Shown piece by piece: positions 1-56,920 of a stretch of DNA of 64,000 bases; positions within the stretch are counted from its first letter, which is position 1; each line of letters starts with the position of its first letter. The translations under genes and the position numbers were made by a program. Below the pieces are notes generated by a model, which worked only from the letters and a program-made list of their open reading frames with translations, made no database searches and was not told the DNA's origin. This DNA is from an uncultured Bacilli bacterium (GTDB taxonomy: Bacteria > Bacillota_I > Bacilli_A > RF39 > UBA660): the NCBI GenBank assembly GCA_947627925.1, contig CANQXW010000002.1, positions 9,575 through 73,574 on the forward strand, read 5' to 3'.

Positions 1-1467
1 GATTTGAACTGGTGAAAGCCATAATGGTAAAGCACCTTTAGTTTCCTCTAAAATAAAGGCTGTAAAACGGTCAAAGGTTCCAAATATTGCTCTATGTAAA
101 ACAACCGGAATTTGACTTTTGCCTTCTTTATCAATATAAGAAAGTTCAAATCTTCTTGGAAGTAAGAAGTCTAATTGACAAGTAGACAAAGTTACTTCTG
201 GACCAACTGCTGGTTTTACTTCTACATCTAATTTTGGACCATAGAAAGCGGCTTCGCCCACGGCTTCATAGTAGTCGATACCAAAGCCATTTAAAACTTC
301 TCTCAATTTATTTTCAGCTTCATCCCACATTTTATCATCATCAAAATATTTTTCTTTATCTAATGGATCTCTTAAAGATAAACGGAATTTATAATTTTTA
401 ATACCGAAATCATGATAAACATCTAAAATAAGTCTAACAACTTTTTCAAATTCTTCCCCAATTTGGTCTGGACGGACAAAAAGATGGGCATCATTTTGAC
501 ACATACAACGAACTCTTTCTAGTCCTTTAACAGCGCCGCTTGCTTCATATCTAAAGTCAGTCGCAAATTCGCCAATTCGAATTGGTAAATCCCGATAAGA
601 ATGAAGTTCGTTAGCATAGACTAACATATGATGAGGACAGTTCATTGGCCTTAAAACAAATTCTTCATCGTCAACTTTCATAGAAGGGAACATATTTTCC
701 TTATAATGATCCCAATGACCAGAAGTCTTATATAAATCAACGGTACCAACACATGGCGTATAAACATGAAGATAACCTAATTTTTGTTCTTTTTCATAGA
801 TATAATTCTCTAATTGCTTTCGAATTATAGCGCCATTAGGTAGCCATAAAGGCATTCCTTTTCCCACTAAATCATGAGTTGTAAAAATATTTAAAGCCTT
901 GCCAATTTTACGATGATCTCTTTGAGATGCTTCTTCAAGTTCGGTTAAATAATCATTAAGTTCTTCTTCGGTATTAAAACAAACACCATAAATTCTTTGA
1001 AGCATTTTATTATTTTTATCGCCTTTCCAATAGGCTCCGCTAAATTTAATTAATTTAAAATGTTTTAATTCTTTAACACTTTCTACATGAGGACCACGGC
1101 AAAGATCAGTAAAATCCCCTTGAGTATAACAAGATATAACCGTTTCATTCTCGTCCATTCTTTCAATCAAATCAATTTTATAAGGGTCATCTTTAAACAT
1201 TTCTAAAGCTTCACTTTTAGAAATTTCATGACGGACTATTCTTTTGCCATCTTTAGCAATTTTTTTCATTTCGTGTTCAATTTTCGGAATATCTTCTTCG
1301 GTAATAACTTTGTCACCTAAATCGATATCATAGTAAAATCCTTCTTCTACAACTGGGCCAACCCAAAACTTAGCCTCCGGATATAAATGCTTTACTGCTT
1401 GCGCTAGTAAATGAGCACAACTATGATTTAACACATTTAATTTTTCATTTTCTTTAATATTTATCAT
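1..1467 (-). CDS. thrS: threonine--tRNA ligase, N-terminal 489 codons (3' end runs off the window)
   Basis: The minus-strand frame is open from ATG (1465-1467, RBS AGGAGGAAG upstream) to position 1. The translation MINIKENEK...[11 protein letters not shown]...RPMNCPHHM...[28 protein letters not shown] carries class II ThrRS hallmarks. The ORF track omits it because it is open-ended. Confidence 0.9.
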
Positions 1468-2092
1468 TTTTCTTCCTCCTTAATATAAATTTCGACTTCA
1501 ATGTCTTTATCAATTTCCTTTTTAAATTTTTCTCCTAAATCCATGCTACCAATGATACTACCATAATGAGTCGGGATAACTTTGTGAGGCTTTATCTCGT
1601 TTATGTACTTGGAAGCCTCGATGTAATCCATAGTAAAATGTCCTCCGATGGGAATAAAGCAAACATCAGCATGAATATTTTTATTTTCCTCTAAAGCATC
1701 AGTATCTCCCATAATATAATAGGTTAATCCTTCAAAGGAAAGAAGATAGCCCACATAATTAGCTTCTTTCGGATGAAACTTTTTATTAATGTTATAAGCT
1801 CTAACGGTGGAAAATTTTAAACCTTCAACCTCATAACTTTGATTAGGAAAAACTATTACTACTCTTTCGGATAAAGTTTTAACTTCTTCCTCTAAAATTT
1901 GGGGAGCAATAATAATGGTATCATCCTTAATAATATTCTGAATAGACTTTTTATCATAATGATCATAGTGATCATGAGTGATAAAAATATAGTCGGCATC
2001 ATTTAACTTTTGGGTTATTTTGAAAGGGTCAAAATATATTTTTTCTGACCACTAAGTTTTATAGCCGATTGAGTAAATACTTCAATTGTCAT
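1464..2092 (-). pseudogene. MBL-fold metallo-hydrolase, reading frame broken by a 1-nt deficit in an A6/T6 run
   Basis: ATG at 2090-2092 gives MTIEVFTQSAIKLSGQKK, which then stops. The -1 frame continues IYFDPFKITQKLNDADYIFITHDHYDHYD (HxHxDH motif) into the tracked ORF 1464-1754. The break is at the T6 run 2039-2044; A7 would restore the frame. Confidence 0.7.
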
Positions 2093-2095
2093 CTT

Positions 2096-2341
2096 TCCAC
2101 CTCCCTAGAAAATAAAAAAGAATGATACTTGAGGAGTCAAATTGACGGTACCATCCTTTGCTTAACTTAATTTCGATAACGGCTTTAAACCGGAGTTGAT
2201 TGGACTCACTAGAGAATAGTAATTATTAAATTCCTTTGTTAATTTCCACCAACCATTAACTCTCTTGGAAAATTCCTTTAATAATCGTGTTTCTCATCAC
2301 AGATTTATGTCTTAATTTTAACACTATTTATTTGTTTTGAC
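2096..2341 (-). promoter_or_regulatory. T-box leader (Thr specifier ACU) with its promoter and intrinsic terminator, upstream of the MBL-thrS operon
   Basis: Promoter TTGTCA-17-TAAAAT lies at plus 2313-2341. There is a K-turn-like GAUGAGA...UCUCUAGUGA. A 9-bp stem AUUAUUAAA/UUUAAUAAU flanks the loop UACUAU (ACU+A at plus 2218-2220). The T-box core is AAAGGAUGGUACCGUC (2145-2160). A 10-bp terminator AGGAUGGUAC/GUAUCAUUCU is followed by U6. Confidence 0.8.
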
Positions 2342-2555
2342 AATCTTTTTTCGGAACTAAATCGATTCCGCCTTTAGAAAAGGGATTGCATTTTAAAATT
2401 CGCTTAAGACTTAAGATAACTCCTTTAAAACTACCATAGGTGCTAATAGCCTCTTTAGCATAATCGGAACAAGTAGGATAATATTTACAATTACTATGAC
2501 TTCTTAAAGGGGCCATTTGATATAAATTAATTAATTTTAATAAAACCTTTTTCAT
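2328..2555 (-). CDS. yidD: membrane protein insertion efficiency factor YidD
   Basis: MKKVLLKLINLYQ...CKYYPTCSDYAKEAI..GSFKG..LSLKRILKCNPF..GGIDLVP matches the YidD pattern. The tracked ORF extends to a GTG at 2588, but I prefer the 75-aa ATG start. Confidence 0.85.
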   Translation of the reverse strand: MKKVLLKLINLYQMAPLRSHSNCKYYPTCSDYAKEAISTYGSFKGVILSLKRILKCNPFSKGGIDLVPKKDCQNK

Positions 2556-2584
2556 AACCTTATTATAATAGTTTATTTTTAAAC

Positions 2585-3973
2585 TCACAAGTCTTGCTTA
2601 TTTCTTGTTAATCTCATAAATGGAGTTTGCTCTAAATCATTAGTCAACAATTTATCACAAAAATCCAAAAAGTAATTCTTTAATTCTAAGATTTCTGTTT
2701 TATCAAAAGATACTGGTAAGAACAATTTTTTCTTATTCATACGATAACGCTCTTCTTTAGTAAGCACTCGATCACCATAAGTATATTTAGTAATTATAGG
2801 GTTATCTACAAGATATTTTTTGGCTTGTAATAAATTTTGTAAAGCTCTAAAATTATGATTTTCAATAATTGCACTTAAAAGATCAATTTGTTCTAAAAAT
2901 GTATTTTTAAATTCAGCAACATAAACTGAATATCCCATATAAAATATTTCTTGAAAAAAACTTTGAATATCTTCAGCTTCCATCATAGTTTGTTTACGAA
3001 TATTCCATGAGTCTTCTGGGGCACCATAAAAAATTTTTTGCTCATTTTCTTTAGTATTGTTAATAACATAATTTTGGGCATATGTTAACTTTTCTTTCAA
3101 AATTGTCCAAACATACTCATATTCGTTATCATCTCTTGGTATTTCCCAATATTTAGGAGCATATTGAAAATAGAAATGCATCGGTTTCATAAATTCAAAT
3201 ATCATTTCTTTTTCTTCCTTGCTACAAGAATTTAAAAGATTAAGATATTTAATAAATAAATCATCATTTAAATGATAAAGACATAATTTTAAAACATCTT
3301 TCCTTGATAAATTTGGATATTCTTGTAAAATATCATCAATATTTATATCTAAAAGTTTACTATCCTTAAATGTGTCAATAAGCATATCTAAATTAAAACT
3401 TTCAACATTTTGATAATTATTTATGTATTCTTCATATAATGATTTAATATCCTCTAAATATTGGATCCAAAAATCATCAGTTAATTTTAAGGTGATGTGT
3501 TCTTCCGGGTTACTTTCTTTTGTAAAGACTACTAAATACTCAATATCTTCTTCTGTTGCTTTTGCGTCATAACTGTATCTTGTTAAGATCGTCCAAATAT
3601 TACAAGCAATAAAAATTGCTACTTCATTTTTATCTAATTTGTCATTATGCAAATTATAAATATTTCTAATAAATATTCTTTGGATTTTATTCGTTACATC
3701 ATGAAACTCAAAAGCATTATAAATACTGACAAAGCCGCTTTTTCCTTCCCTTTTTAAATAATCATTTATTTCATTATATAACTTTTTTTCATTATCATCT
3801 TTTAAAATATCAATGCTGCCCATATAGTATAATATATGAAAAGCTATAAATTCACAAAATTCTCTATTCTTTCTTAAAGGCCTTCTTCTACTTAATAAAC
3901 CATTATCTTCTTTTAATTCCATCAGAACCCTCCTAATTGCATTTATAATAGCATAAAGATAATATTTTTTCAA
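2585..3973 (-). CDS. hypothetical protein (462 aa), no domain recognised
   Basis: A long ORF in AT-rich DNA. Its stop overlaps the alternative yidD start (GTGA). Confidence 0.7.
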   Translation of the reverse strand: MKKYYLYAIINAIRRVLMELKEDNGLLSRRRPLRKNREFCEFIAFHILYYMGSIDILKDDNEKKLYNEINDYLKREGKSGFVSIYNAFEFHDVTNKIQRIFIRNIYNLHNDKLDKNEVAIFIACNIWTILTRYSYDAKATEEDIEYLVVFTKESNPEEHITLKLTDDFWIQYLEDIKSLYEEYINNYQNVESFNLDMLIDTFKDSKLLDINIDDILQEYPNLSRKDVLKLCLYHLNDDLFIKYLNLLNSCSKEEKEMIFEFMKPMHFYFQYAPKYWEIPRDDNEYEYVWTILKEKLTYAQNYVINNTKENEQKIFYGAPEDSWNIRKQTMMEAEDIQSFFQEIFYMGYSVYVAEFKNTFLEQIDLLSAIIENHNFRALQNLLQAKKYLVDNPIITKYTYGDRVLTKEERYRMNKKKLFLPVSFDKTEILELKNYFLDFCDKLLTNDLEQTPFMRLTRNKQDL

Positions 3974-4043: not shown

Positions 4044-4092
4044 TTGCACTTTTAAGGAAAATAAACTATACTTAACTTATAAACAAATGTTT
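4044..4092 (+). promoter_or_regulatory. sigma-A-type promoter plus a possible SOS (Cheo-like) operator
   Basis: TTGCAC (4044-4049), a 17-nt spacer, then TATACT (4067-4072). The imperfect palindrome AAAC-AAAT-GTTT (4081-4092) lies between the -10 and the RBS GGAGGTG. It resembles GAAC-N4-GTTC only partly. Confidence 0.4.
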
Positions 4093-4108
4093 GCTGGAGG
4101 TGATTTAG

Positions 4109-5359
4109 ATGAATTTTAAAAGAAATATTTTATGTATTGATTTAAAAAGTTTTTTTGCTTCTTGTGAATGTATAGAAAGAGGTCTTGATCCTTTTACTTA
4201 TCCCTTAGTAGTAGCTAATCCGAAACAAGGAAATGGGGCCATTACTCTAGCGGTTACTCCCTATTTAAAAAAGCAAGGCGTAAAATCACGGGGACGTCTT
4301 TATGAAATAGATAAAAATATTAAGTATTATATTGCGAAGCCAAGGATGAGCTTATATATTGCGAAAAGTAAAGAAGTTATCAGCGTTTATTTAGACTTTG
4401 TGAGTGATGATGATTTACACGTCTATTCGATTGATGAATGTTTCTTAGATGTTACCAATTATTTAAAAATGTATAAGAAAACCGATGAAGAATTAGCCCA
4501 AGACATTTTAAAGACAATTTATCAAAAAACGGGACTTACAGCAACTTGTGGGATTGGACCAAATATGCTTTTGGCTAAAGTAGCGATGGATGTCGAGGCT
4601 AAAAGTAAACCTAATAATATTGCCAAATGGTCCTATGATGATGTTGAAAAGAAATTATGGCCCCTTACTCCTCTTTCAAAAATGTGGGGCATTGGCAAAA
4701 GAATGGAAAAAAATTTTAATATGTTAGGAATTTATTCTGTTGGGGATTTAGCTTGTTATGACCAAAATGTTTTAAAAGATAAATTTGGAGTGATGGGAAT
4801 AGAACTTTGGAATCATGCCAATGGAATTGATTATAGTAAAATTTCTGATTTTAAAAAAATGGCTAAAACAGAATCTTTTAGCCATTCCCAAGTATTATTC
4901 AAAGACTATAATGAAAACAATATTAAAATTATTATTTCCGAAATGGTTGATGTTTTAACCGAAAGACTTAGAAAAAACAACAAAATGACTAAATGTATTA
5001 GTCTAGGAATAGGATATTCCAAAGAAATTGACAATGGCTTTTATCATTCCACTAGACTAGATAATCCGACAGATTCAGCATATGAAATATTAAAGTATTG
5101 TTTAATTATTTTTGACAAGTTTTATGAATATTTACCCATTAGAAAAGTAACAATAGCTTGTGGAGATTTACAAAAAAGAGATAATGTGCAATTAAGTTTA
5201 TTTAATGAAGAAAAAGAACCAGAAAAAAATAATATTAATGCTACAATTGATAATATTAAAAATAAATTTGGCAAAAATAGTCTTTTAAAAGCTACTAATC
5301 TTTTACAGGACTCTACGGCAAAAGAAAGAAATCAAAAAATTGGAGGACATGAATCATGA
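4109..5359 (+). CDS. Y-family (translesion) DNA polymerase, UmuC/YqjW/UvrX-like
   Basis: The N-terminus ILCIDLKSFFASCE, then SIDECFLDVT, and the GIGPNMLLAKVAMD and LWGIG motifs are typical of the ImpB/MucB/SamB family. Confidence 0.85.
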   Translation: MNFKRNILCIDLKSFFASCECIERGLDPFTYPLVVANPKQGNGAITLAVTPYLKKQGVKSRGRLYEIDKNIKYYIAKPRMSLYIAKSKEVISVYLDFVSDDDLHVYSIDECFLDVTNYLKMYKKTDEELAQDILKTIYQKTGLTATCGIGPNMLLAKVAMDVEAKSKPNNIAKWSYDDVEKKLWPLTPLSKMWGIGKRMEKNFNMLGIYSVGDLACYDQNVLKDKFGVMGIELWNHANGIDYSKISDFKKMAKTESFSHSQVLFKDYNENNIKIIISEMVDVLTERLRKNNKMTKCISLGIGYSKEIDNGFYHSTRLDNPTDSAYEILKYCLIIFDKFYEYLPIRKVTIACGDLQKRDNVQLSLFNEEKEPEKNNINATIDNIKNKFGKNSLLKATNLLQDSTAKERNQKIGGHES

Positions 5360-5670
5360 TTGATAGAGGTATTATTAAATGGCAACCTTTTAATTCATGC
5401 TATAATGGCAAAAAGGTTATTGAAGATATTAAAAAAAATAAGGACTATGTTTCTTATCCTTCCCTATCAGAAGATCAATTAGAAATATTAGAAAACGAAA
5501 TTATTGAAGCCTATAATTTAGGATTAAATATTTCTTTGGTATACTATTATAGTGGGAAAATAAATAATCTTAAAGGTAAAATTAATTATTTAAATACTGA
5601 AAAAAAGATTCTATATCTAAATAATAAGAATCTTTACTTGAAACAAATTTTAAAAATTGAAAGAATTTAA
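5356..5670 (+). CDS. YolD-like protein (UmuD-equivalent partner of Y-family polymerases)
   Basis: Small size and 4-nt overlap (ATGA) with the polymerase gene. The N-terminal RGIIKWQPF motif is as in YolD/YqjX. Confidence 0.7.
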   Translation: MIDRGIIKWQPFNSCYNGKKVIEDIKKNKDYVSYPSLSEDQLEILENEIIEAYNLGLNISLVYYYSGKINNLKGKINYLNTEKKILYLNNKNLYLKQILKIERI

Positions 5671-23802: not shown

Positions 23803-23885
23803 TTATTATATGCTAGAATAATTTTCTAAGAATTGAGGTGCCTTATGACTAAAGAATTAGCTATGCAAATCTTAGGTTTAGAAAA
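23791..23885 (+). repeat. near-identical 5' module (promoter, RBS and first 14 codons), copy 1
   Basis: My manual alignment to 25964-26058 (offset 2173) shows 1 mismatch in 95 nt. The module includes TGCTAGAAT (an extended -10-like element), the RBS GAGGTG and ATGACTAAAGAATTAGCTATGCAAATCTTAGGTTTAGAAAA. Confidence 0.85.
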
Positions 23886-25887
23886 GGAATTCACTTTTAA
23901 AGAATTAATGGAGGCCTACCACAGAGAAAAAAATAAATATGAAAATCATTTTCACGTTTATAAAACGGAATATCCGCCAGAATTAAATGATGTGGAAAAT
24001 GCTTATAAATATTTAAAACAAAATCAATGCTATGTTATACCTACTACTGATAAAACTACGGCAAGAATTTCATATGATGAAGATGAACCTTTATATTCTT
24101 TAGATCGAAAAAATGAAGAAATAAAACAAACAATAAATCGATTTATGGAAAATTTTGCCATTGAGAAAAAGAAATTTATTGAAAGAATATCTATTTATTT
24201 AGAAATTCCTAATATGGCTTATTCCGATACAAAACAAGAGCAAATAGATTTTTTGGCACCACAATATCCGGCTTTTTTAGAAACTTTACAAAATTCAGTA
24301 AAAGTTGAAGTAGAAAGAATATTGCCACTAATTAAAGATTGTCAAGATTATAATGATTTTGCTAAATTTAAGGAAATTGCTGAAAGTTTTAAAGCTTATA
24401 TAAAGGAAATTTACAAAAAGATAATTGAAGAAGTATTAAAGGAATATAATTTAGTCAAATGGGATATGAGTGATATATATAACAATCTTTTCCCTTCTAT
24501 AAAAACCAGATATCACAATTTAATAGAAGTCTACAATTTAGTTCATAATTATATCGTACAAGCAGGACTTGTATCAAATAACAATACCTTTGAGAGAACA
24601 TGTAGAGAAATTTTTAATTACTGGATGATAAATGTTAAACATAGTAAACATTTTAGAGAAATTAGCAAACAAGATTTTCATTCAATGCGTAAACAAGTTA
24701 GAGACAAAATGAAATCTCTATATGGAGACTATTTATCTATAGATATAGCATTCCAAAACGGCTTTCAAAAATTATTTATAGAATCCCTAGACGATTTAGA
24801 AAGAGAAAAAACCGCAATGTATGCTGAATTTTACGATGTATTAGAGGAAAAACGAAAAACTTACAGAAATGAACCAGGGATTGGCTATGTTGGCGATATA
24901 GTATGGGAAAAAATACGAGAAAGAATTAGTGATAAATATGGAAAAGAATTTACGAAAGGAGCCGACAGTTATCCGGTTATTACACCGAGTGTTAGAAAAG
25001 GAATAGAGCAAATCATTGAAGAGGAACAAGATGAAATCGTAAAATTATATAATAAAAGATTTTATCAAATAAAATATTTATTAGACCACTATCCAACTTT
25101 CGCTAACTCAGATTTTGTTAACGAGGAATTAAGAACTCAGGTCTACCCTTTTGAACGTTTTATTATAAATGAAACACATGCAAATGAATTTTTTCGAATA
25201 TTAAATGAATGTGAACCTAATGCTCATATAACTAGTTTTGATTCGATTCCTTATGAAGATGAATCTATTAGTGATGAAATGCTTCATACCTTACAAAAAG
25301 AAGAAGATGATATTCTTCCTAATCGAGGCACCTATTTAGTTTATGATGGCTGTGAAATAACCTGGTTAGAAATTGAAGAAAAACTAAAACAATATCAAAG
25401 AAATGACGAGGTAACTCACGCAATTTATCAAGAGGGAATTTTATTTGCCAAAAATGGAACGTTTAATTCTGAGTATTTAGAACCACACTCATATGCTGGT
25501 GGTATTTATGTTAGCGATTTTATAGAAGAACAAAAACCAGCTATTTTAACATATCCAATAAATGGTGATGTCAAATCTGTAACTTCTATCTTTGAATATA
25601 TTTTGGATAGATTGCGAAATTTACAAGAGTTTGATGCAGTTGCCGATTATACTTTAATATCATTTAATTTAAATAGTCATAATTTATTTATTTTTTCTCA
25701 TCATCTTCCAGTATATGTCGGATTTACAAATAAAAATGAAAAAATGTATTCTAACAATCCATGCTTATTGAGGTATTTTTGTAATCAAGTTTATCAAATA
25801 CCTGATGAATCTTACTTATTTAATGGCAATATTGAGCCAAGAAAAAAAGGTTTTGATCTATTAGTGCGTCGTTATCATAACTATTAA
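23845..25887 (+). CDS. large unknown protein with a degenerate J-domain-like N-terminus, paralog 1
   Basis: I use the ATG after RBS GAGGTG; the tracked ORF begins 12 nt earlier at a TTG. MTKELAMQILGLEKEFTFKELMEAYHREKNKY...VENAYKYLKQN resembles J-domain helices but has no HPD. No other domain was recognised. Confidence 0.75.
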   Translation: MTKELAMQILGLEKEFTFKELMEAYHREKNKYENHFHVYKTEYPPELNDVENAYKYLKQNQCYVIPTTDKTTARISYDEDEPLYSLDRKNEEIKQTINRFMENFAIEKKKFIERISIYLEIPNMAYSDTKQEQIDFLAPQYPAFLETLQNSVKVEVERILPLIKDCQDYNDFAKFKEIAESFKAYIKEIYKKIIEEVLKEYNLVKWDMSDIYNNLFPSIKTRYHNLIEVYNLVHNYIVQAGLVSNNNTFERTCREIFNYWMINVKHSKHFREISKQDFHSMRKQVRDKMKSLYGDYLSIDIAFQNGFQKLFIESLDDLEREKTAMYAEFYDVLEEKRKTYRNEPGIGYVGDIVWEKIRERISDKYGKEFTKGADSYPVITPSVRKGIEQIIEEEQDEIVKLYNKRFYQIKYLLDHYPTFANSDFVNEELRTQVYPFERFIINETHANEFFRILNECEPNAHITSFDSIPYEDESISDEMLHTLQKEEDDILPNRGTYLVYDGCEITWLEIEEKLKQYQRNDEVTHAIYQEGILFAKNGTFNSEYLEPHSYAGGIYVSDFIEEQKPAILTYPINGDVKSVTSIFEYILDRLRNLQEFDAVADYTLISFNLNSHNLFIFSHHLPVYVGFTNKNEKMYSNNPCLLRYFCNQVYQIPDESYLFNGNIEPRKKGFDLLVRRYHNY

Positions 25888-25975: not shown

Positions 25976-26058
25976 TTATTATATGCTAGAATAACTTTCT
26001 AAGAATTGAGGTGCCTTATGACTAAAGAATTAGCTATGCAAATCTTAGGTTTAGAAAA
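25964..26058 (+). repeat. near-identical 5' module, copy 2
   Basis: See 23791-23885. Confidence 0.85.
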
Positions 26059-28060
26059 TGAATTTACTTTTGAAGAATTAAAAAAGGCTTATGAACAGGC
26101 TCATAATCAATATCAAATAAATCATTATCCTAACTTTATAAAAAATCATTCTGCTAAATTATATGATATTGAAAGAGCATATGAGTTTTTAAAGAAAAAT
26201 AAATGCTACTCAATTTCTCTTCGTGATACTACTAGGAATATTTTTTATGATAATGATGATAAATTTCTAGAATATTTAAAAGGAATAAACGGGGAAATAA
26301 AATTATTAATGGAAAAAATAATTAAAAATTTTCCAATAGAAAGAGAAAGTTTTATTAAGCGAATATCAATTTTTTTAAATTCTCCAAAGATAGTTTATAC
26401 AGATGATGAAGATAATCAAATTACTATATTCACGACAAAATATCCTCGATTTTTAGAACCTCTGCAAAAAGAAGTTAAAGATAAAGTCAAAAAATTAATT
26501 GCGCAGATTAAAGAATTTCAAAGTTACAATGACTTTTTAAAATATTGTGAAATTGTAGAAGAATTTAACCATTTCATAAAAGAAATTTACAAAAAAATTA
26601 TTGAATACTCTTTAAAAGCACATAATTTGGTTTGTTGGGATGTCAGCGATATATACGATAATGTTTTTTCATCTATGCAAAATAGATACCATCAACTATT
26701 TGATGTATATGATTTAATACAAGATTATATTAATGAACATAAATTAACATCTAACAATGCTTTTGAAAACAAGATGAAAGAAGTATTCGATAAATGGTTA
26801 AGGACTTCTAAACATAGTCCTCATTTTAAAGACTTAAGTGAAGAAGAACGAAAAAAAATATTTAATCATGCAAGAAATATAATGAAAGAATTATTTAAGG
26901 ATTATTTATCTGATAGCACCGCTATACAAAATGGTTTTGAAGAAATGCTTATCGAACTTTTAGATAATCTAGAAAATACTGAATCTCAAATCTATCATAC
27001 TCTTAACGAAGTAATCGACGAAAAGATGGCTACATATCAAGGAGATATTGGATTTCAATATTTTTCTTTAACCCATCCAATTTGGAGCCAAATTAGAGAA
27101 AGAATAGTAAGTGTTTATGGTAAAGATTTTGAAAAGGGGAAAAATCCCAATGTTACTCCCGCGATGAAAAAAGACATCGAGCTCATTATTGAAGAAGAAA
27201 TAACAAGACTCATAGAATTATACAATAAAAGATTCTATCAAATAAAATATTTATTAGATCACTATCCAAATTTTGCTAATTCTTCTTATGTTGAAGCAAT
27301 GTTACAAAATTTTGTTAATCCTTTTCAACCTTTTATCACAGAAGGTGCATTTGAAGATGATCTCTTAAAAAAATTAAATGAAACAGAACCAGAGGCCCAA
27401 TTAACTAGTTTTGATTCCATTAATTATATTGATGAAATTATTAGTGATGAAACACTACAAATGGTAAATCCTGATGAAGAGATATTACCTAATCGTAATA
27501 CCTACTTAGTATATGATGGGAGCGAATTTTCTTGGCTAGAAATAGAAGAAAAATTTAAACAATACAGCCAAAATGACACAGAAATTTATGCTATTCATTG
27601 CGATGGAATGCTTTTTGCCAAAAGCGGAAAATTTAATCCTAATTGTATCGAACCTGCTAGTTATGATGGTGGCTATTTTGTTAGTGATTTTAAAAGAGAA
27701 CAAGAAAGCGATATTGCTGACACCTACAAAGATTACTGGAATAATCCATCTACAACTTACACCTTTAGAGCTGCTTTAAACAAATTCAGTGTTTTAAAAA
27801 ATTTAGAACAAGTTGCTGATTTTACTTGTGTAGCTTTTAACACAAAATATCATAGTCTTTTTATCATTTCTCATCATCTACCTGTCTATATTGGCTTTAC
27901 CAATAAAGGAGAAAAAATGTATTCTAACAATCTAAGTTTATTAAGGCATTTTTGTCCATATATTCATAAAATGCCTGATGAATCTTACTTAATTGATGGC
28001 GATATTATGCCACGTCGAAAAGGTTTTGATTTATTAGTTCGTAATTACCATAACAATTAA
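26018..28060 (+). CDS. large unknown protein with a degenerate J-domain-like N-terminus, paralog 2
   Basis: The tracked ORF is 684 aa, the same as paralog 1. Shared blocks are KEIYKKIIE, LYNKRFYQIKYLLDHYP.FANS, LPNR.TYLVYDG, HHLPVY.GFTNK.EKMYSNN and PDESYL..G.I.PR.KGFDLLVR.YHN. Confidence 0.75.
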   Translation: MTKELAMQILGLENEFTFEELKKAYEQAHNQYQINHYPNFIKNHSAKLYDIERAYEFLKKNKCYSISLRDTTRNIFYDNDDKFLEYLKGINGEIKLLMEKIIKNFPIERESFIKRISIFLNSPKIVYTDDEDNQITIFTTKYPRFLEPLQKEVKDKVKKLIAQIKEFQSYNDFLKYCEIVEEFNHFIKEIYKKIIEYSLKAHNLVCWDVSDIYDNVFSSMQNRYHQLFDVYDLIQDYINEHKLTSNNAFENKMKEVFDKWLRTSKHSPHFKDLSEEERKKIFNHARNIMKELFKDYLSDSTAIQNGFEEMLIELLDNLENTESQIYHTLNEVIDEKMATYQGDIGFQYFSLTHPIWSQIRERIVSVYGKDFEKGKNPNVTPAMKKDIELIIEEEITRLIELYNKRFYQIKYLLDHYPNFANSSYVEAMLQNFVNPFQPFITEGAFEDDLLKKLNETEPEAQLTSFDSINYIDEIISDETLQMVNPDEEILPNRNTYLVYDGSEFSWLEIEEKFKQYSQNDTEIYAIHCDGMLFAKSGKFNPNCIEPASYDGGYFVSDFKREQESDIADTYKDYWNNPSTTYTFRAALNKFSVLKNLEQVADFTCVAFNTKYHSLFIISHHLPVYIGFTNKGEKMYSNNLSLLRHFCPYIHKMPDESYLIDGDIMPRRKGFDLLVRNYHNN

Positions 28061-50421: not shown

Positions 50422-50531
50422 AATAAAAAAACGCCTAATTCAGCAATTAACTACCCCAACTTAAATTCGGCAACATCCAACACAGAAATATTTGAATGTT
50501 CCTTTTTTATTGTATTCAAGTTTCCTTGAAC
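50422..50531 (-). ncRNA. candidate small RNA (orphan copy of the module at 56.8 kb)
   Basis: It lies downstream of the promoter at 50538-50567. It has the 5' hairpin UGUUCAAG-GAAA-CUUGAAUA, then AAAAAAGGAACAUUCAAAUAUU..., and ends at a GCCgAAUU...AAUUaGGC stem followed by GUUUUUUU. The boundaries are inferred. Confidence 0.3.
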
Positions 50532-50537
50532 AATAAT

Positions 50538-50567
50538 ATTATAGCATGTAATGATTTTTTCTGCCAA
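50538..50567 (-). promoter_or_regulatory. sigma-A-type promoter (extended -10), copy A
   Basis: On the minus strand, TTGGCA, an 18-nt spacer, then TGcTATAAT. Confidence 0.5.
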
Positions 50568-50596
50568 AAAAAGATACTCTATTTCTAAAGTATCTT
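50564..50596 (-). terminator. intrinsic terminator of surface-protein gene 1
   Basis: On the minus strand, AAGATACT-ttagaaatag-AGTATCTT followed by T7. Confidence 0.7.
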
Positions 50597-50731
50597 CTCT
50601 ATACTAATTTGTAAATAATTGTTTTACAATTACCACAAGTTCTGTGGAAAGGTTTGTGAGAATGAACTTTAGGGTGTTTGCGAGTCCCTAAAATTTATTT
50701 AAACAATTTATTTACCAATTTAGTAACTTAA

Positions 50732-52219
50732 TTAGTTGTTTTCTTTTCTTTTTGTAGAAAAGCTAACTGTTAAGGCACTTACTAGACCTAATCCAGCATA
50801 AACTAAGATATTATCATTAGTTTTTGGTACATCTGGCACATTAGGGTTTGTGTCTTCTGGAGTTGTTCCTGGAGTGTTTGCTTCGTCTCCAGTACTTCCT
50901 TGTTGATCTTCAGGTTTTTTATCTGGTGCTTGAGCGCCATTACCTACTACCACGTTTCCATTTTCATCAGTTGTGAATTCAGCGCTAGCTAATGCTTTAA
51001 CAAAATCATCATCTGAATATTTTTCAGAACCTAATCTTATATCATTACCAATTAATCCGCCAATGAATTCTCCACCTGAAATCATATTTTTATGTTGATC
51101 AAGGAAATTTTTATCTAAGTCTTCAATATGCATAACTGGTAAATATTTGCCGTTATTTCCTTTTCCACTTGTAAATTTGCCTCCTGAAACAGCTAATTTA
51201 GTATCTTCGGTTACTCCCTTGATATAAACAGCATATTCATTAGCCTTTTTAGCAGTAAATTCTCCACCTGAAATTGCTACATCAACATATTTTGGTCCAT
51301 TATAAGTAGTACCGTCATCATTTTGCATTGCAAGCACTGCAATTGCATGGTTAGATTCACCATCGTGAACTCCTTTTTGATGTTGTGCATCAGTAGCTGT
51401 ATAAGTACCACCAGTAATACTAACTTTACCACTTCTAACAGTAACAGCTTGAGCACCTTTTACAGTACCATTAATAGTCCAAATACCATATCCTGATGCG
51501 TATAAAGCTGTTGCTTGATTTGATGTATATGTACCAGCATTTACATTAATTACTGGTGCATTTTTATCATATGCAATAAATCCGTTAACCTTTATTACAT
51601 AGCCTTCAGTAGTCCAAGTACCATCCATATCAATTGTTGTATTCTTAGCTGTAGAAATTCTACTTGAAACCGGGCCATTAACTCCTAAAACTAAACCATA
51701 TCCAGTAGAAGTAACAGTAACATCCTTTCCAAAAGATACAGCAGTTGTAAGATCTGTATTATCATTTCCTGCAACTAATACAACAGCTGAATTATCATCA
51801 TCCGTGGTACCATTGCCTTTTAATTCAACTGAACCTTCTACCTTTAAAGTAGATCCAGCCTCAACTTTAATTAATGGAACACCTGCACCAGCAACATTTT
51901 TAATAATTCCGCTAGTTCCTGTTATAGTAACATTAGCATCTGATTTTATTATAATGCTGTGTCCATTGGCAACAGTAATAGTTTTACCATTTAAATCAAG
52001 AGTGATATCTTTATCAATATCTCTATCTACTGATAAACTTGATGCCTTTAATACTTTGACTGTATCACCTTTTTGAGCATGATCTAAAGCATCTGTTAAA
52101 GAAGTTTCACATACATCATTTAGATAAGCTTCACCCATACATTCAACTTCAGCTCTAACACCCATAGTCATTACTAACATACTTAGTAATGCGATTGCAA
52201 ACATTTTTAAACTTTTCAT
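50732..52219 (-). CDS. secreted, C-terminally anchored surface protein with beta-helix-like repeats, paralog 1
   Basis: Signal peptide MKSLKMFAIALLSMLVMTMGVRA. Repeated SGG(T/E/K)F(T/I) turns. A Pro/Glu/Asp linker. C-terminal VPKTNDN, a hydrophobic helix and KRKENN. Confidence 0.8.
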   Translation of the reverse strand: MKSLKMFAIALLSMLVMTMGVRAEVECMGEAYLNDVCETSLTDALDHAQKGDTVKVLKASSLSVDRDIDKDITLDLNGKTITVANGHSIIIKSDANVTITGTSGIIKNVAGAGVPLIKVEAGSTLKVEGSVELKGNGTTDDDNSAVVLVAGNDNTDLTTAVSFGKDVTVTSTGYGLVLGVNGPVSSRISTAKNTTIDMDGTWTTEGYVIKVNGFIAYDKNAPVINVNAGTYTSNQATALYASGYGIWTINGTVKGAQAVTVRSGKVSITGGTYTATDAQHQKGVHDGESNHAIAVLAMQNDDGTTYNGPKYVDVAISGGEFTAKKANEYAVYIKGVTEDTKLAVSGGKFTSGKGNNGKYLPVMHIEDLDKNFLDQHKNMISGGEFIGGLIGNDIRLGSEKYSDDDFVKALASAEFTTDENGNVVVGNGAQAPDKKPEDQQGSTGDEANTPGTTPEDTNPNVPDVPKTNDNILVYAGLGLVSALTVSFSTKRKENN

Positions 52220-52248
52220 CTTTTTTCCTCTTTCCTTTCTATGCGTTA

Positions 52249-52279
52249 ATTATACCCCCCCCCGTATTCGATTTGTCAA
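52249..52279 (-). promoter_or_regulatory. consensus promoter with a G9 tract inside its 19-nt spacer (gene 1)
   Basis: On the minus strand, TTGACA (plus 52274-52279), aatcgaatac+GGGGGGGGG (C-run at plus 52255-52263), then TATAAT (52249-52254). The ATG is about 30 nt downstream. The -35 lies in one arm of the 10-bp inverted repeat GATTTGTCAA/TTGACAAATC (52270-52308). Confidence 0.7.
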
Positions 52280-52544
52280 TACTTATTTTTGCTAATTTTT
52301 GACAAATCATTATTTTTTACAAAAAAGATATAATTTCTTTATATTATATTTATTATTTTATATTTTGATTACAATTTAAAAAATTATATACTATTATCGT
52401 GTAAATAAGGATCATTCTAAAATAAAAAGAGAAAATTCACTTAGTAACTTTCTCAATTTATTATAATCCTACTCCTATTTCTAGTTGTAATTTTATTACT
52501 TCTGAAATAAAAAAATTTGTATTCAAGTTTCCTTGAACAATAAT

Positions 52545-52574
52545 ATTATAGCATGTAATTACTTTTTCTGCCAA
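52545..52574 (-). promoter_or_regulatory. sigma-A-type promoter (extended -10), copy B
   Basis: TTGGCA, an 18-nt spacer, then TGcTATAAT. The GAAA-tetraloop hairpin is followed here by ACAAAUUUUUUUAUUU, so the transcript would probably be very short. Confidence 0.45.
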
Positions 52575-52603
52575 AAAAAGATACCTTATTTCTAAAGTAT
52601 CTT
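52571..52603 (-). terminator. intrinsic terminator of surface-protein gene 2
   Basis: A 7-bp stem AAGATAC/GTATCTT followed by T7. Confidence 0.65.
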
Positions 52604-52738
52604 CTCTATACTAATTTGTAAATAATTGTTTTACAATTACCACAAGTTTTGTGGAAAGGTTTGTGAGAATGAACTTTAGGGTGTTTGCGAGTCCCTAAAA
52701 TTTATTTAAACAATTTATTTACCAATTTAGTAGCTTAA

Positions 52739-54196
52739 TTAATTGTTTTCTTTTCTTTTTGCAGAAAAGCTAACTGTTAAGGCACTTACTAGACCTAAAC
52801 CAGCATAAACAAGAATGTTATCATTTGTTTTTGCAGGTTCGTCTGGTAAACGACCTGTTGTTCCGTCTGCTGGAGTGTTTGCGTCTCCAGTATTTCCTTG
52901 ATCTTCAGGTTTTGTTTGATCTTCTGGTTTTTGTTCATCAGCAGGGGTGTTAGTATTAACATCACCTTTAACTAATTCAGCAGTAAATTCTTCATCAGTA
53001 TATTTTACGCCATCTACAGTAATTTCACCAACTACACCGCCAGTGAATGTTCCACCAGTAATCATATCTTTATGATTTTCAAACATAAGTTGAGCACTAG
53101 CATTATTAACATACATAGCTGGTAATTGAGTTCCTTTAACTGAATCTTTACCACTTGTAAATGTACCACCACTGATAGCTAATTTAGATCCTTCAACTAT
53201 TTTTCCGACATATATTGCATACGCATCTTCAGTATTAGCAGTAAATGTACCACCTGAAACAATTAAATTCATATATTCTGGATGATATGTAGAACTATCT
53301 TTCTTTTCGTCTCCTAAGATAGCAATAGCATGATTACCTTCGCCATCGTGAACACCTTCACCGTTTTTTGTATTAGTAGCTGTATAACTTCCTCCACTAA
53401 TATCTACCTTACCACTTCTAACTGCAACAGCTTGAGAGCCTTTTACAGTCCCACCATCAATATCCCATTCAGCATATCCTGATGCATATAATGCAGTTGC
53501 TTTATTTGAAGTATATGTACCTTCAGCTATAGTAATCTTCACAGGATTAGAACTTTTAGTAATATATCCATTAACTTTTACAACATAAGCATCTGTAGTC
53601 CAGGTACCATTCATTGTAATATCAATATTTTGAGCCGTTGTAGTAGATCCATCACCAACAACTAAACCATGTAATTTTGAAGTAGCGACAACACCTTTTT
53701 CAAAATATACAGTAGTATTGTTAGTATTGATGTTTTTTACTCTTACAACAGCAGAGTCAATTTCAGTAGCATTATTGACTAAATTAACTGAATCTTCTAC
53801 CTTTAATGTAGCTCCAGAATTTACAGTAATCAATGATGTTTTAACTGCTGCAACATTTTCAACTGTACCAGTTCCTTTCAAAGTAAGTTTTGCACCATTT
53901 ACTATAATTCCAGCACCATTAGTAGTAGTAAATTTAAGGCTCTTGCCGTTTAAATCAATAGTAATATTTTGACTAATTTCAATGGAACTGCTTTCTTCAG
54001 CATCAGCTTCTAGTTTAATTGTATCGCCAATTCCTGCTCCTCTAATAGCTGTAGATAAATCTGCATAACAAGTAAGTTTACCATCAACTAGTCTCGAATA
54101 CTCATCGTTACTATCTGTACATGATGCAGCATGTACACCTGTTGCCATTACAGCAAATGCCATAACAGCGATTGCAAACATTTTTAAACTTTTCAT
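52739..54196 (-). CDS. secreted, C-terminally anchored surface protein with beta-helix-like repeats, paralog 2
   Basis: Signal peptide MKSLKMFAIAVMAFAVMATGVHA. Shared blocks are TWTT..YV.KVNG, GTYTSN.ATALYASGY, VRSGKV and GVHDGE.NHAIA. The C-terminus is PAKTNDNILVYAGLGLVSALTVSFSAKRKENN. Confidence 0.8.
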   Translation of the reverse strand: MKSLKMFAIAVMAFAVMATGVHAASCTDSNDEYSRLVDGKLTCYADLSTAIRGAGIGDTIKLEADAEESSSIEISQNITIDLNGKSLKFTTTNGAGIIVNGAKLTLKGTGTVENVAAVKTSLITVNSGATLKVEDSVNLVNNATEIDSAVVRVKNINTNNTTVYFEKGVVATSKLHGLVVGDGSTTTAQNIDITMNGTWTTDAYVVKVNGYITKSSNPVKITIAEGTYTSNKATALYASGYAEWDIDGGTVKGSQAVAVRSGKVDISGGSYTATNTKNGEGVHDGEGNHAIAILGDEKKDSSTYHPEYMNLIVSGGTFTANTEDAYAIYVGKIVEGSKLAISGGTFTSGKDSVKGTQLPAMYVNNASAQLMFENHKDMITGGTFTGGVVGEITVDGVKYTDEEFTAELVKGDVNTNTPADEQKPEDQTKPEDQGNTGDANTPADGTTGRLPDEPAKTNDNILVYAGLGLVSALTVSFSAKRKENN

Positions 54197-54225
54197 CTTT
54201 TTTCCTCTTTCCTTTCTATGCGTTA

Positions 54226-54256
54226 ATTATACCCCCCCCCGTATTCAATTTGTCAA
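54226..54256 (-). promoter_or_regulatory. consensus promoter with a G9 tract inside its 19-nt spacer (gene 2)
   Basis: TTGACA (plus 54251-54256), aattgaatac+G9 (C-run 54232-54240), then TATAAT (54226-54231). Confidence 0.7.
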
Positions 54257-54533
54257 TACTTATTTTTGCTAATTTTTGACAAATCACTGTTTTTTACAAA
54301 AAAGATATAATTTCTTTATATTATATTTATTATTTTATATTTTGATTACAATTTAAAATCATCATTAATTAAATACATATTTTCCAAATATTTTCATATA
54401 TTAAATAATGCAGCTTTTCTTAAAAACAGACAATTTATTAAAATTTTAGCCGCTTCGGGAGAAAATATCTCCCAAATATTTACTTTTTCGCTAAAAAATG
54501 CTAATATAAGTACAAAAAGGAGATGAAATACAT

Positions 54534-55733
54534 ATGTTAATTCAATTTAAATTTAAAAATCATAAATGTTTTTATGACGAAACTTTTTTAGACTTATTAG
54601 CCACTCAAGAAAAAAGGCATTTGGAATCGACAATTAATGTCAATGGTTATAATATCTTACCAGTAATTGCTATTCATGGAGCTAATGCTTCTGGAAAAAG
54701 TAGTGCCTTAGAGGCTTTAGATTTCATGTTTGAACTTATCAAGTATTCAAATAAAACTGATATTAAAAATAATTTACCAGCAAATCCCTTTTTATTTAGT
54801 CAAAAAAGTGCTGATGAAAATAGCGAATATGAAATCTCAATTTGCTTAGGTGATTATGAATATCGTTACGGATTCTCATTAAATAAACAACAAATTGATG
54901 AAGAATGGTTATATGTTAAAAAATTTGCTATTAATACTAAAGCTTCCCAAAAAACTATTTTTGAAAGATCAAATAATAAAGTTACCTTTGGCAAAAATTA
55001 TGCTAAATATGAAAAAACTTGGAATTTATTTGGAAAAGATATTATTATAAATACTAATAAACTATTAGTTTTAAGTAATTTAGCCATTAAAGAAGAAACT
55101 GGTATTTTAAGAGATATTTATGATTATATTTGTAAATTTGATTTTAAACTAGCTAGCGAATTTCAAAAAGCCAGTATTGATATCTTAACCCAAGACGATT
55201 CAATATTTCAAAAATTTCAAAATATTATTAATGAATTTGATCCTTGTTTACTAGGAATTGAAATTGTTCCCGTAGAAACAGAAGAGGGAGAAAAATATAT
55301 TATTAGTGGTATTCATAAAAATATTGATAATTCTAAATTACCAATTTCAATCCCTATTCATAAAGAATCTGATGGTACTATTCGTCTTTTTGGTATTATA
55401 CCAAGAATTTTAAAAAATTTAGAAAATGGGGGATTATTATGTATTGACGAAATAGATATAAAATTACACCCTTTATTATTTAAAAAAATTGTAAGTATGT
55501 ATATGGATAAAACAATTAATAAAAATAATGCCCAGTTAATTTATACTTCCCATTCAACATTTTTATTTAATAGTAATACTTTACGAAGAGATCAATTATA
55601 TCTTGTCGAAAAAGATAACACTGGGAAATCCAAGTTATACTCTTTGTCAGAATTTAGAGATTTACGAGCTGATGCCGATTATGAAAAAAAATATTTAACT
55701 GGTCAGTTCGGAGCCATTCCATATGAGAAATAG
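54534..55733 (+). CDS. ABC/SMC-like AAA_21-type ATPase (defence-associated family)
   Basis: Walker A GANASGKSS, signature-like ESDGTIRLF, Walker B LLCIDEIDIKLHP and H-loop YTSHS. It is followed by an RloB-like gene. Confidence 0.75.
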   Translation: MLIQFKFKNHKCFYDETFLDLLATQEKRHLESTINVNGYNILPVIAIHGANASGKSSALEALDFMFELIKYSNKTDIKNNLPANPFLFSQKSADENSEYEISICLGDYEYRYGFSLNKQQIDEEWLYVKKFAINTKASQKTIFERSNNKVTFGKNYAKYEKTWNLFGKDIIINTNKLLVLSNLAIKEETGILRDIYDYICKFDFKLASEFQKASIDILTQDDSIFQKFQNIINEFDPCLLGIEIVPVETEEGEKYIISGIHKNIDNSKLPISIPIHKESDGTIRLFGIIPRILKNLENGGLLCIDEIDIKLHPLLFKKIVSMYMDKTINKNNAQLIYTSHSTFLFNSNTLRRDQLYLVEKDNTGKSKLYSLSEFRDLRADADYEKKYLTGQFGAIPYEK

Positions 55734-55741
55734 GTAAAAAT

Positions 55742-56430
55742 ATGGGAAGTGACAATTTATATAAAAGACGTACTACCGAAAGGCGTCAAAGACAAGAAAA
55801 TATAAAAAAGAACGCTCTAGTAATTGGTTAATAGTATGTGAGGGAAAGAAAACAGAACCAAACTATTTTACAAACGCTATTGAAGAAATTAATAAAAATA
55901 TTGATAGTAAATATAAATTTAAAGTCAAAATTGTTGGTAAAGGAATGAATACCAAATCTTTAGTTAAAGCGGCAGATTTACAAATTGAAATTGATAAATA
56001 TTCTTATAATGAAATACCATATGGAAAAATATTTGTTGTATTTGATAAAGATAGCTTTGATGCTGATGATTTTGATGAAGCAATAAAAATGTGTGAAAAT
56101 AATGGGTATATTCCACTATGGTCTAACCAAGCAATTGAATTTTGGTTTTTATTACATTTTAATTATATATTTTCTAAAATGAATAGAACAGAATATGCTA
56201 AAAAAATTAATGAATATTTTAAAAAGAAAGGGCTTAATTATAAATATAAGAAAAATGACAAAGAAATATACAATTTACTTTGTAAATATGGTTCATTAGA
56301 AAAAGCCAAAACAAATGCTAAAAAAATTATGAAGGAGTTTCAAGGAGAAAAACCATCATTATCAGAAAGTTGTACAAATGTATATAAATTCTTTGATGAA
56401 ATTGATAGTCGATTAAAAGAATTAAAATAA
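55742..56430 (+). pseudogene. RloB-like (Toprim-like) protein gene, interrupted at an A_AAA_AAG / A6 run
   Basis: ATG at 55742 gives MGSDNLYKRRTTERRQRQENIKKNALVIG*. The -1 frame continues ERSSNWLIVCEGKKTEPNYF...VVFDKD...WSNQAIEFWFLLHF (RloB signatures) to 56430. The A-run is at 55804-55809; A7 or a -1 slip restores the frame. Confidence 0.7.
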
Positions 56431-56769: not shown

Positions 56770-56885
56770 ATTGAAAAGAACCTAACTCATCATCTATGAT
56801 TTAGGTTCAACCAAAATAAATTCTGCAACACTCAACACTAGAATATTTGAATGTTCCTTTTTTATTGTATTCAAGTTTCCTTGAC
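56770..56885 (-). ncRNA. convergent small RNA, candidate type I antitoxin
   Basis: It starts after the promoter at 56892-56920. It has the GAAA-tetraloop hairpin and AAAAAAGGAACAUUCAAAUAUUC.... It ends at the 8-bp terminator GAACCUAA/UUAGGUUC followed by UUUUC, right at the peptide stop codon. The U-run exists only on this strand. Confidence 0.4.
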
Positions 56886-56891
56886 ATATTC

Positions 56892-56920
56892 ATTATAACA
56901 TATAATTAATTTAATGACAA
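56892..56920 (-). promoter_or_regulatory. sigma-A-type promoter, copy C (drives the convergent small RNA)
   Basis: On the minus strand, TTGTCA (plus 56915-56920), a 17-nt spacer, then TATAAT (56892-56897). Confidence 0.55.

Follow-up and report, generated by a model that had tools for sequence, protein, structure and literature searches.

Phase variation by simple repeats is textbook knowledge for the pathogens Neisseria, Haemophilus, Campylobacter, Treponema and Mycoplasma, and work on phase variation in gut commensals has mostly concerned invertible promoters. In the DNA analysed here, a stretch of 64,000 nt from an uncultured Bacilli bacterium (hereafter the window), two adjacent paralogous genes for putative surface proteins are each preceded by a promoter with nine consecutive G between its -35 and -10 hexamers. 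The question raised by this locus is whether slippage in such a poly-G promoter could turn the transcription of a surface-protein gene on and off, making it a contingency locus with phase variation. Judging from the sequence comparisons presented below, this is probably the case, and we would assign it a probability of about 0.7.

Structure of the twin promoters and their cassettes

The features on which the analysis is based are the following.

54256..54251, minus strand: -35 hexamer TTGACA of the paralog-2 promoter, read from the sequence; the majority of the relatives' tabulated cassettes have the identical hexamer
54250..54241, minus strand: the 10 nt of the spacer ahead of the repeat, AATTGAATAC; the ATAC adjoining the tract is kept in nearly all relatives
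54240..54232, minus strand: G9 homopolymer, the proposed slippage tract, giving a spacer of 19 nt; in relatives the equivalent tract is G8 or G9
54231..54226, minus strand: -10 hexamer TATAAT of the paralog-2 promoter, read from the sequence
54204..54213, minus strand: ribosome-binding region GGAAAGAGG, read from the sequence
52739..54196, minus strand: coding sequence of paralog 2, 485 aa, open reading frame
50732..52219, minus strand: coding sequence of paralog 1, 495 aa, open reading frame; protein 48% identical to paralog 2
52279..52249, minus strand: twin promoter of paralog 1, TTGACA-AATCGAATAC-G9-TATAAT, with G9 at 52263..52255, read from the sequence
54168..54358, minus strand: 5' cassette of paralog 2 (191 nt), 98% identical to 52191-52381
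52517..52816, minus strand: 3' cassette of paralog 2 (300 nt), 96% identical to 50510-50809
~52607..52573, minus strand: terminator-like hairpin with U run, downstream of paralog 2 and ahead of the paralog-1 promoter, from folding (region z = -5.2)

The promoter that had been predicted ahead of paralog 2 was confirmed to the base, with TTGACA and TATAAT separated by 19 nt (the 10 nt AATTGAATAC plus G9), and the same architecture is present at both paralogs, each with its own copy reading G9. At paralog 2, the -10 hexamer is followed by TAACGCATAGAAAGGAAAGAGGAAAAAAG and then by the ATG at 54196 (minus strand), so that 29 nt lie between the promoter and the start of the gene. The Shine-Dalgarno sequence GAGG occupies 54207..54204 (minus strand), 7 nt ahead of the ATG, and the distance to the -10 hexamer would place the transcription start near 54219. 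The A run that separates GAGG from the start codon is also not of one length in all paralogs (GAGG-A6-G-ATG, GAGG-A6-ATG and GAGG-A7-G-ATG; variable sites at 54203..54197 of the window, L020:4929 and L021:1674). The distance from the Shine-Dalgarno sequence to the ATG changes with it, and the run may act as a further tuning tract, at the level of translation.

The twin promoter pattern is beyond chance. In the 64-kb window, with its ~27% G+C, runs of at least 8 G are confined to the two twin promoters (4 overlapping matches against 0.20 expected; 4 reached in 0 of 100 shuffles), and TTGACA-N19-TATAAT occurs at these two places only (0.07 expected; 2 reached in 0 of 100 shuffles). The G9 promoter was missing from the promoter scan because this accepts only spacers of 16-18 nt, and the spacer of 19 nt falls outside that range.

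The two paralogs constitute a tandem duplication of ~2 kb, with 1,977 bp between their G tracts. Besides the promoter and an AT-rich block upstream of it, the 5' cassette contains the 5' UTR and the first codons; the 3' cassette contains the last codons and the terminator as well as two hairpins and a second promoter-like site. Since the twin promoters are copies within the duplicated cassette, they represent one evolutionary event and not two independent coincidences. The word "independent" in the original prediction therefore does not apply to the origin of the paralog-2 promoter, which is a copy in a tandemly duplicated 191-nt cassette with 98% identity. The contrast between near-identical flanks and diverged gene bodies points to concerted evolution, and the copies of the 5' cassette are probably kept near-identical by gene conversion.

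The terminator-like hairpin between the genes indicates that paralogs 1 and 2 are probably separate transcription units. The four expression states proposed earlier for the pair are thus plausible, the hairpin with its U run being a strong one. The second promoter-like site in the 3' cassette, TTGGCA-18-TGcTATAAT (52545..52574 and 50538..50567, minus strand), is also strong, with 11 of 12 matches and an extended -10; it lies just past the terminator of each gene and is aimed at the next gene. The site at 52574..52545 could drive read-through into paralog 1 whatever the length of the G tract. In the intergenic regions, Rfam recognised no known RNA element with E-values up to 1 allowed. An invertible-promoter switch was also considered and rejected, as flanking inverted repeats are absent and only short AT-rich matches were found, beside a 10-nt palindrome around the -35 that is not conserved in relatives.

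Predicted structure and anchoring of the encoded proteins

Both paralogs carry a Sec-type signal peptide (MKSLKMFAIA...VHA followed by A, with cleavage after VHA). No lipobox cysteine was found, the first Cys being variably placed, or absent from the aligned N-terminal stretch, in several family members. In the AlphaFold2 model, the body of the protein forms a right-handed beta-helix of repeated short strands (pLDDT 84.6, pTM 0.80). Beta-helix proteins make up nearly all of the top structure matches in the PDB (AlgG, AlgE4, phage tailspikes and the adhesin domain of L. reuteri SRRP), the best having target-normalised TM-scores of 0.43-0.49 with weak E-values (1e-3 or worse). The paralogs are therefore predicted by modelling to be right-handed parallel beta-helix proteins. 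Searches of Pfam, NCBIfam and PDB sequences with the paralogs gave no match, and coding tandem repeats were not detected by Tandem Repeats Finder, which returned only short, low-copy AT-rich rows.

The beta-helix body is followed by a linker rich in Pro, Asp, Gln and Thr, and then by a C-terminus in which a motif, a hydrophobic helix and a basic tail succeed each other (PAKTND-NILVYAGLGLVSALTVSFSA-KRKENN in paralog 2). This tripartite end is nearly invariant in the family, consisting of PAKTND or VPKTND, then NILVYAGLGLVSALTVSFS, then KRKENN; the sorting motifs seen are VPKTND, PAKTND, NPETND and VPQTND. The general form x-P/A-K/E/Q-T-N-D, with a variable first residue, resembles NPQTN and NAKTN, and the C-terminus as a whole looks like a class B sortase cell-wall sorting signal. 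Known class B sortase substrates are IsdC of S. aureus, with NPQTN, and Lmo2185/2186 of Listeria, with NAKTN/NPKSS (PMC8225981). The family proteins have a C-terminus of similar build, with a short motif that resembles theirs, a hydrophobic helix and a basic tail. However, they are haem-uptake NEAT proteins encoded beside srtB, whereas the proteins studied here are predicted beta-helix proteins and no sortase-like ORF with a TLxTC motif was found within the 64-kb window. From the form of their C-terminus, the family proteins are probably sortase-anchored.

The gene family and its cassette in relatives

A search of 5.8 billion proteins yielded 57 relatives, and an exact-protein look-up of paralog 2 (P0001) found it not on record. 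The genomic matches are all "MAG: uncultured Bacilli bacterium, isolate Lapin-0xx" (rabbit gut), together with ENA metagenome contigs of the same project, and the family is present in at least nine species-level "uncultured Bacilli" rabbit-gut MAGs. The RNase P in the window is of class B, in agreement with Firmicutes. In the family alignment, the signal peptide and the sorting signal are nearly invariant and the middle is hypervariable, with a mean column identity of 27%; the subtypes of N-terminus, UTR and C-terminus are combined in various ways. Tandem arrays of family genes were seen, with at least seven in L002 (extended by L022) and three each in L004, L013 and L043. The organism of the window has at least five members, namely paralogs 1 and 2 and P0024, P0020 and P0014, the latter three on another contig that comes from the same sample and has the same coverage.

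These numbers are likely to be too low, as family loci break short-read assemblies and the family members per MAG are therefore underestimated. Many MAG contigs end inside the 5' cassette (L007, L008, L025, L029 and L017), and three begin, at position 1, exactly with the G tract (L005/L009, L016 and L048). The second assembly of the locus of the window (L001) likewise breaks inside the repeated cassette before reaching the paralog-2 tract.

For each family gene, the 75 nt ahead of the start codon were tabulated. Almost all family members share a cassette with the consensus TTGACA, ~10 nt ending in ATAC, a G tract, and TATAAT. Uninterrupted tracts are of two lengths, G9 with a 19-nt spacer (~29 entries) and G8 with an 18-nt spacer (6 entries), a seventh G8 gene having lost its -35; G7 and G10 were not found among the tabulated cassettes. 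In seven paralogs without a long G tract the spacer measures 18 nt (five cases) or 17 nt (two cases), never 19. Among the five 18-nt spacers, one holds T8 and one ends in G5. The anatomy of the promoter, its conservation, the G8/G9 polymorphism and the spacings of the tract-free promoters can all be read directly from these entries.

Some members depart from the common form. At L013:4143 a T8 run takes the place of the G tract in the 18-nt spacer (TTGACA-AAGACATTTTTTTTGAAG-TATAAT), which may be a different homopolymer with the same job. Interrupted tracts, G5AG4 and G4AG4, were found in one and the same MAG, and they resemble the decay that would be expected when a switch becomes locked. P0014 (L042), from the same organism as the window, has a tract-free 18-nt promoter and may be a constitutively expressed family member. 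With regard to the distribution of G8, each of six MAGs has exactly one G8 gene and none has two. This is a hint of a "one G8 per genome" pattern, with a rough binomial chance of ~0.2 for no genome with two G8 (G8 making up ~21% of tracts), which is not significant.

Mutability and distribution of G tracts

Among 52 within-genome cassette pairs, tract length differs in 15. Seven pairs have identical 90-nt flanks, and in three of these the length of the tract alone differs. As these differences arose while 630 flanking sites remained without substitution, changes in tract length are far more rapid than point substitution.

Related loci with a total of 364 kb contain no G run of at least 7 that does not directly abut a -10-like hexamer. 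These runs comprise 22 distinct contexts in the cassette and two elsewhere, ahead of other predicted envelope-protein genes. One of the two, at L024:4022-4030, reads TTGACA-9 nt-G9-TATACT with an 18-nt spacer and precedes the gene at 4052-5665, which encodes a different protein of 537 aa with an NPQTS anchor signal. The other, at L033:1379-1387, is a G9 abutting a -10-like hexamer with less clear hexamer spacing, ahead of the gene at 1454-3118 for a 554-aa protein with an N-terminal membrane anchor. The poly-G device is thus not limited to one gene family. Such a confinement of G runs at ~27% G+C matches the prediction of second-order selection for contingency loci. A scan of JGI metagenomes with a variable-gap DNA pattern returned eight loci, all chance matches and none with a G tract; the lineage is either absent there or the pattern was too narrow.

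A possible switch mechanism and its alternatives

Since the tract-free promoters have spacers of 17-18 nt, this appears to be the working distance of the promoters of the family, from which it follows that G8 would be the on state and G9 off or weak. The proposed promoter would be of the sigma-A type, with a slippage-prone poly-G tract setting the distance between -35 and -10. At G9, with its 19-nt spacer, the promoter would be off or weak; if slipped-strand mispairing at replication removed one G, the spacer would shrink to 18 nt and the gene would be on, and the gain of one G would reverse this. With a tract of its own for each paralog and a terminator between neighbours, the genes would switch separately, so that a mixed population with different combinations of surface proteins could result, with four states for two genes and many more for larger arrays. 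Both genes in the window read G9, which is the predicted low or off state. We infer that transcription depends on the spacing, and in this direction, and that switching is frequent and reversible. The contingency tract of the original prediction gains support from the comparison with relatives, in the G8/G9 differences among paralogs and species, the 17-18 nt of the tract-free spacers, and the position of G runs of at least 7 next to -10-like hexamers.

It could be argued, however, that the tract is a fixed expression setting, with G9 hard-wired low and G8 high, and that changes happen only on evolutionary time scales. The same gene indeed keeps its consensus tract length in every independent assembly compared, G8 genes included, and only two tract lengths (G8 and G9) were seen. 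Tract length for the same gene differed in 0 of ~9 such comparisons, which involve consensus sequences of near-identical strains and have little power. They are paralog 1 in the window and L001 (9 vs 9), P0017 in L002 and L003 (9 vs 9), the P0030 locus with three genes in three samples (all G9), and the G8 genes L002:12014 and L015:706 against L046 and L047 (8 vs 8); L043 and L044 are even 100% identical over 8.4 kb. Within this set of close relatives at least, each gene seems to keep its majority tract state. On the other hand, 9-nt G runs are to our knowledge intrinsically slippage-prone in all bacteria studied, and at gut population sizes a slippage-prone G9 must yield length variants. Differences in tract length between identically flanked cassettes (three of seven pairs) also speak against a fixed setting, as does the confinement of G runs of at least 7 to -10-like hexamers at ~27% G+C, and a constant low expression would need just a non-repeat 19-nt spacer or weaker hexamers. 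A fixed setting is therefore considered unlikely, though it has more in its favour than the two explanations that follow.

The cassettes, with the tract as their boundary, might instead function mainly as homology arms for gene conversion of the variable gene bodies, the effect on transcription being incidental. Several observations would fit this, i.e., the flanks are 96-98% identical against 48% for the proteins, the cassette homology of the gene in L028 stops right at the tract, and subtypes of the N-terminus, UTR and C-terminus are combined in a mixed manner. Moreover, L001 shows 4 mismatches to the window in 9,448 nt, and all four fall in the paralog-1 5' cassette (L001:1799-1989 vs window 52191-52381), which in L001 is 100% identical to the paralog-2 cassette of the window (54168-54358). 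This suggests gene conversion between cassettes or else assembly threading, so that the difference could be an artefact. Differences between strains at the P0030 locus also cluster in the 3' cassette. Nevertheless, recombination requires homology and not a G run exactly between a perfect -35 and a perfect -10, and the restriction to G8 and G9 as well as the 17-18-nt spacers of tract-free promoters would be left unexplained. Gene conversion between cassettes is compatible with a switch and may add a shuffling of gene bodies to it, being an added layer more than a replacement; as the main function of the cassettes it seems improbable. More improbable still is that the tract is a sequencing or assembly artefact (two-colour poly-G or a collapsed repeat). 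The source data are short-read metagenome assemblies, several contigs of which (L005, L016 and L048) stop within the cassette or right at the tract. However, more than 40 gene contexts, drawn from many samples and MAGs, show the same tract within conserved unique flanks, tract lengths are reproducible per gene, and dark-cycle poly-G occurs at read ends and not inside contigs that match on both sides.

The slippage switch is therefore preferred for the promoter itself. A wider proposal can be put forward more tentatively, namely that the lineage has a genome-wide poly-G "phasome", in which the G8/G9 promoter cassette and the conserved 5' and 3' recombination arms would drive on/off switching and gene-conversion shuffling of a large set of sortase-anchored beta-helix proteins, usually with one paralog per genome in the 18-nt on state.

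Comparison with known systems

In T. pallidum tp0126 and N. meningitidis porA, the length of a poly-G tract in the -35/-10 spacer sets transcription, with an optimum of 17 nt (PMC7864442). As in the window promoter, the G tract lies inside the spacer and the gene encodes a surface or outer-membrane protein. However, those are single loci of diderm pathogens, whereas here a cassette stands before up to at least eight paralogs per genome in low-G+C gut Bacilli. Furthermore, porA and tp0126 centre on 17 nt, in contrast to the 18 and 19 nt read from the sequences here.

The tprE/G/J promoters of T. pallidum are permissive only at 8 G or fewer, and the tprL promoters are mostly G9 with a G8 minority (PMC7864442). 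Tpr subfamily II and tprL thus resemble the present family in being paralogous surface-protein genes with poly-G promoters on several members, and in the majority of G9 and minority of G8. In tprL, however, the tract overlaps the -10 region and has no spacing effect, whereas here it lies in the spacer. The tpr proteins are unrelated to the present family, and heterogeneity in Treponema was measured by fragment analysis, in contrast to the consensus sequences used here.

In GTDB, the Mollicutes belong to the class Bacilli. Among the mycoplasmas, vlp of M. hyorhinis, maa2 of M. arthritidis and vmm of M. mycoides are switched by indels in the spacer (PMC2268961), and vlp-type promoter-spacer repeats, maa2 and vmm figure in the reference list of PMC11868660 as well. 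The vlp genes of M. hyorhinis resemble the present family in being a multigene family with a tract in each -35/-10 spacer and a conserved 5' region that includes the signal peptide, with combinatorial expression in vlp. The Vlp proteins are lipoproteins whose size varies through in-frame tandem repeats at the C-terminus, and the tracts in their promoters are poly-A. The family studied here, on the contrary, has a sortase-type C-terminus and no detectable sequence homology to Vlp. The vlp-type logic that had been suggested for the pair consequently holds for the design (conserved 5' block, divergent bodies and one tract per gene) but not for membership in the vlp family, as there is no lipobox, the tract is poly-G and not poly-A, and coding tandem repeats are absent.

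For S. pyogenes M28, a 1-nt indel in an intergenic homopolymer is reported to alter transcript levels of the cell-wall-anchored surface protein Spy1336/R28 (PMC7098570). This is also a Firmicutes homopolymer, but at a single locus that differs among strains and not in a family-wide cassette. The switch mechanism proposed here is accordingly known in kind, and the setting is new (an uncultured commensal lineage, an anchored beta-helix family and a lineage-wide cassette). No description of a promoter-repeat cassette or of this gene family in walled gut Firmicutes was found in the literature searched.

If the switch reading is true, poly-G cassettes ahead of a whole family of anchored beta-helix proteins would diversify the surface of an uncultured rabbit-gut lineage of low G+C. 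G8 versus G9 would then be a sequence marker by which the expression state of each paralog could be read straight from metagenomes, and the family would provide defined candidate adhesins, or antigens exposed to the immune system or to phages, in an organism not yet grown. There is also a warning for work with MAGs, as family loci break assemblies and homopolymer length would hold biological information. Should the phasome exist, it would be, as far as the literature found allows us to say, the first multigene promoter-repeat contingency system in a walled gut Firmicutes commensal, functionally comparable to vlp in mycoplasmas and tpr in treponemes.

Neighbouring genes and repeated elements

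An AbiLi/AbiLii anti-phage pair, divergent from paralog 2, is located at 54534-55733 (plus strand; AAA_21 ATPase) and 55945-56430 (plus strand; RloB-like), with PADLOC E-values of 6e-80 and 1e-15. In relatives, family genes are likewise found among defence and toxin genes (Abi_2, HipA_C, CdiA_C, YhcG nuclease and ResIII helicase), and because of this company the locus looks like a variable island.

A repeated unit of ~110 nt occurs on the minus strand at ~50535..50425 and ~56885..56773, with a truncated copy at ~52545..52500, and it is also present in L002, L005, L012 and L050. It has a near-consensus promoter (TTGTCA-17-TGtTATAAT at 56920..56892 for the copy at ~56885..56773), three hairpins and a terminal U run, the first hairpin bearing a GAAA tetraloop, TCAAGGAAACTTGA. 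The unit follows many family genes in the 3' cassette and is also found alone downstream of a C39-peptidase-like gene. Compensatory changes affect 4 of 25 predicted pairs in an alignment of eight sequences, and an Rfam search with the unit gave no match. From these sequence features it looks like a small-RNA gene.

Elsewhere in the window, two adjacent ORFs of equal length, 684 aa, lie at 23833-25887 and 26006-28060 (both plus strand), the first of which was scanned and had no Pfam match; they may be another pair of paralogs.
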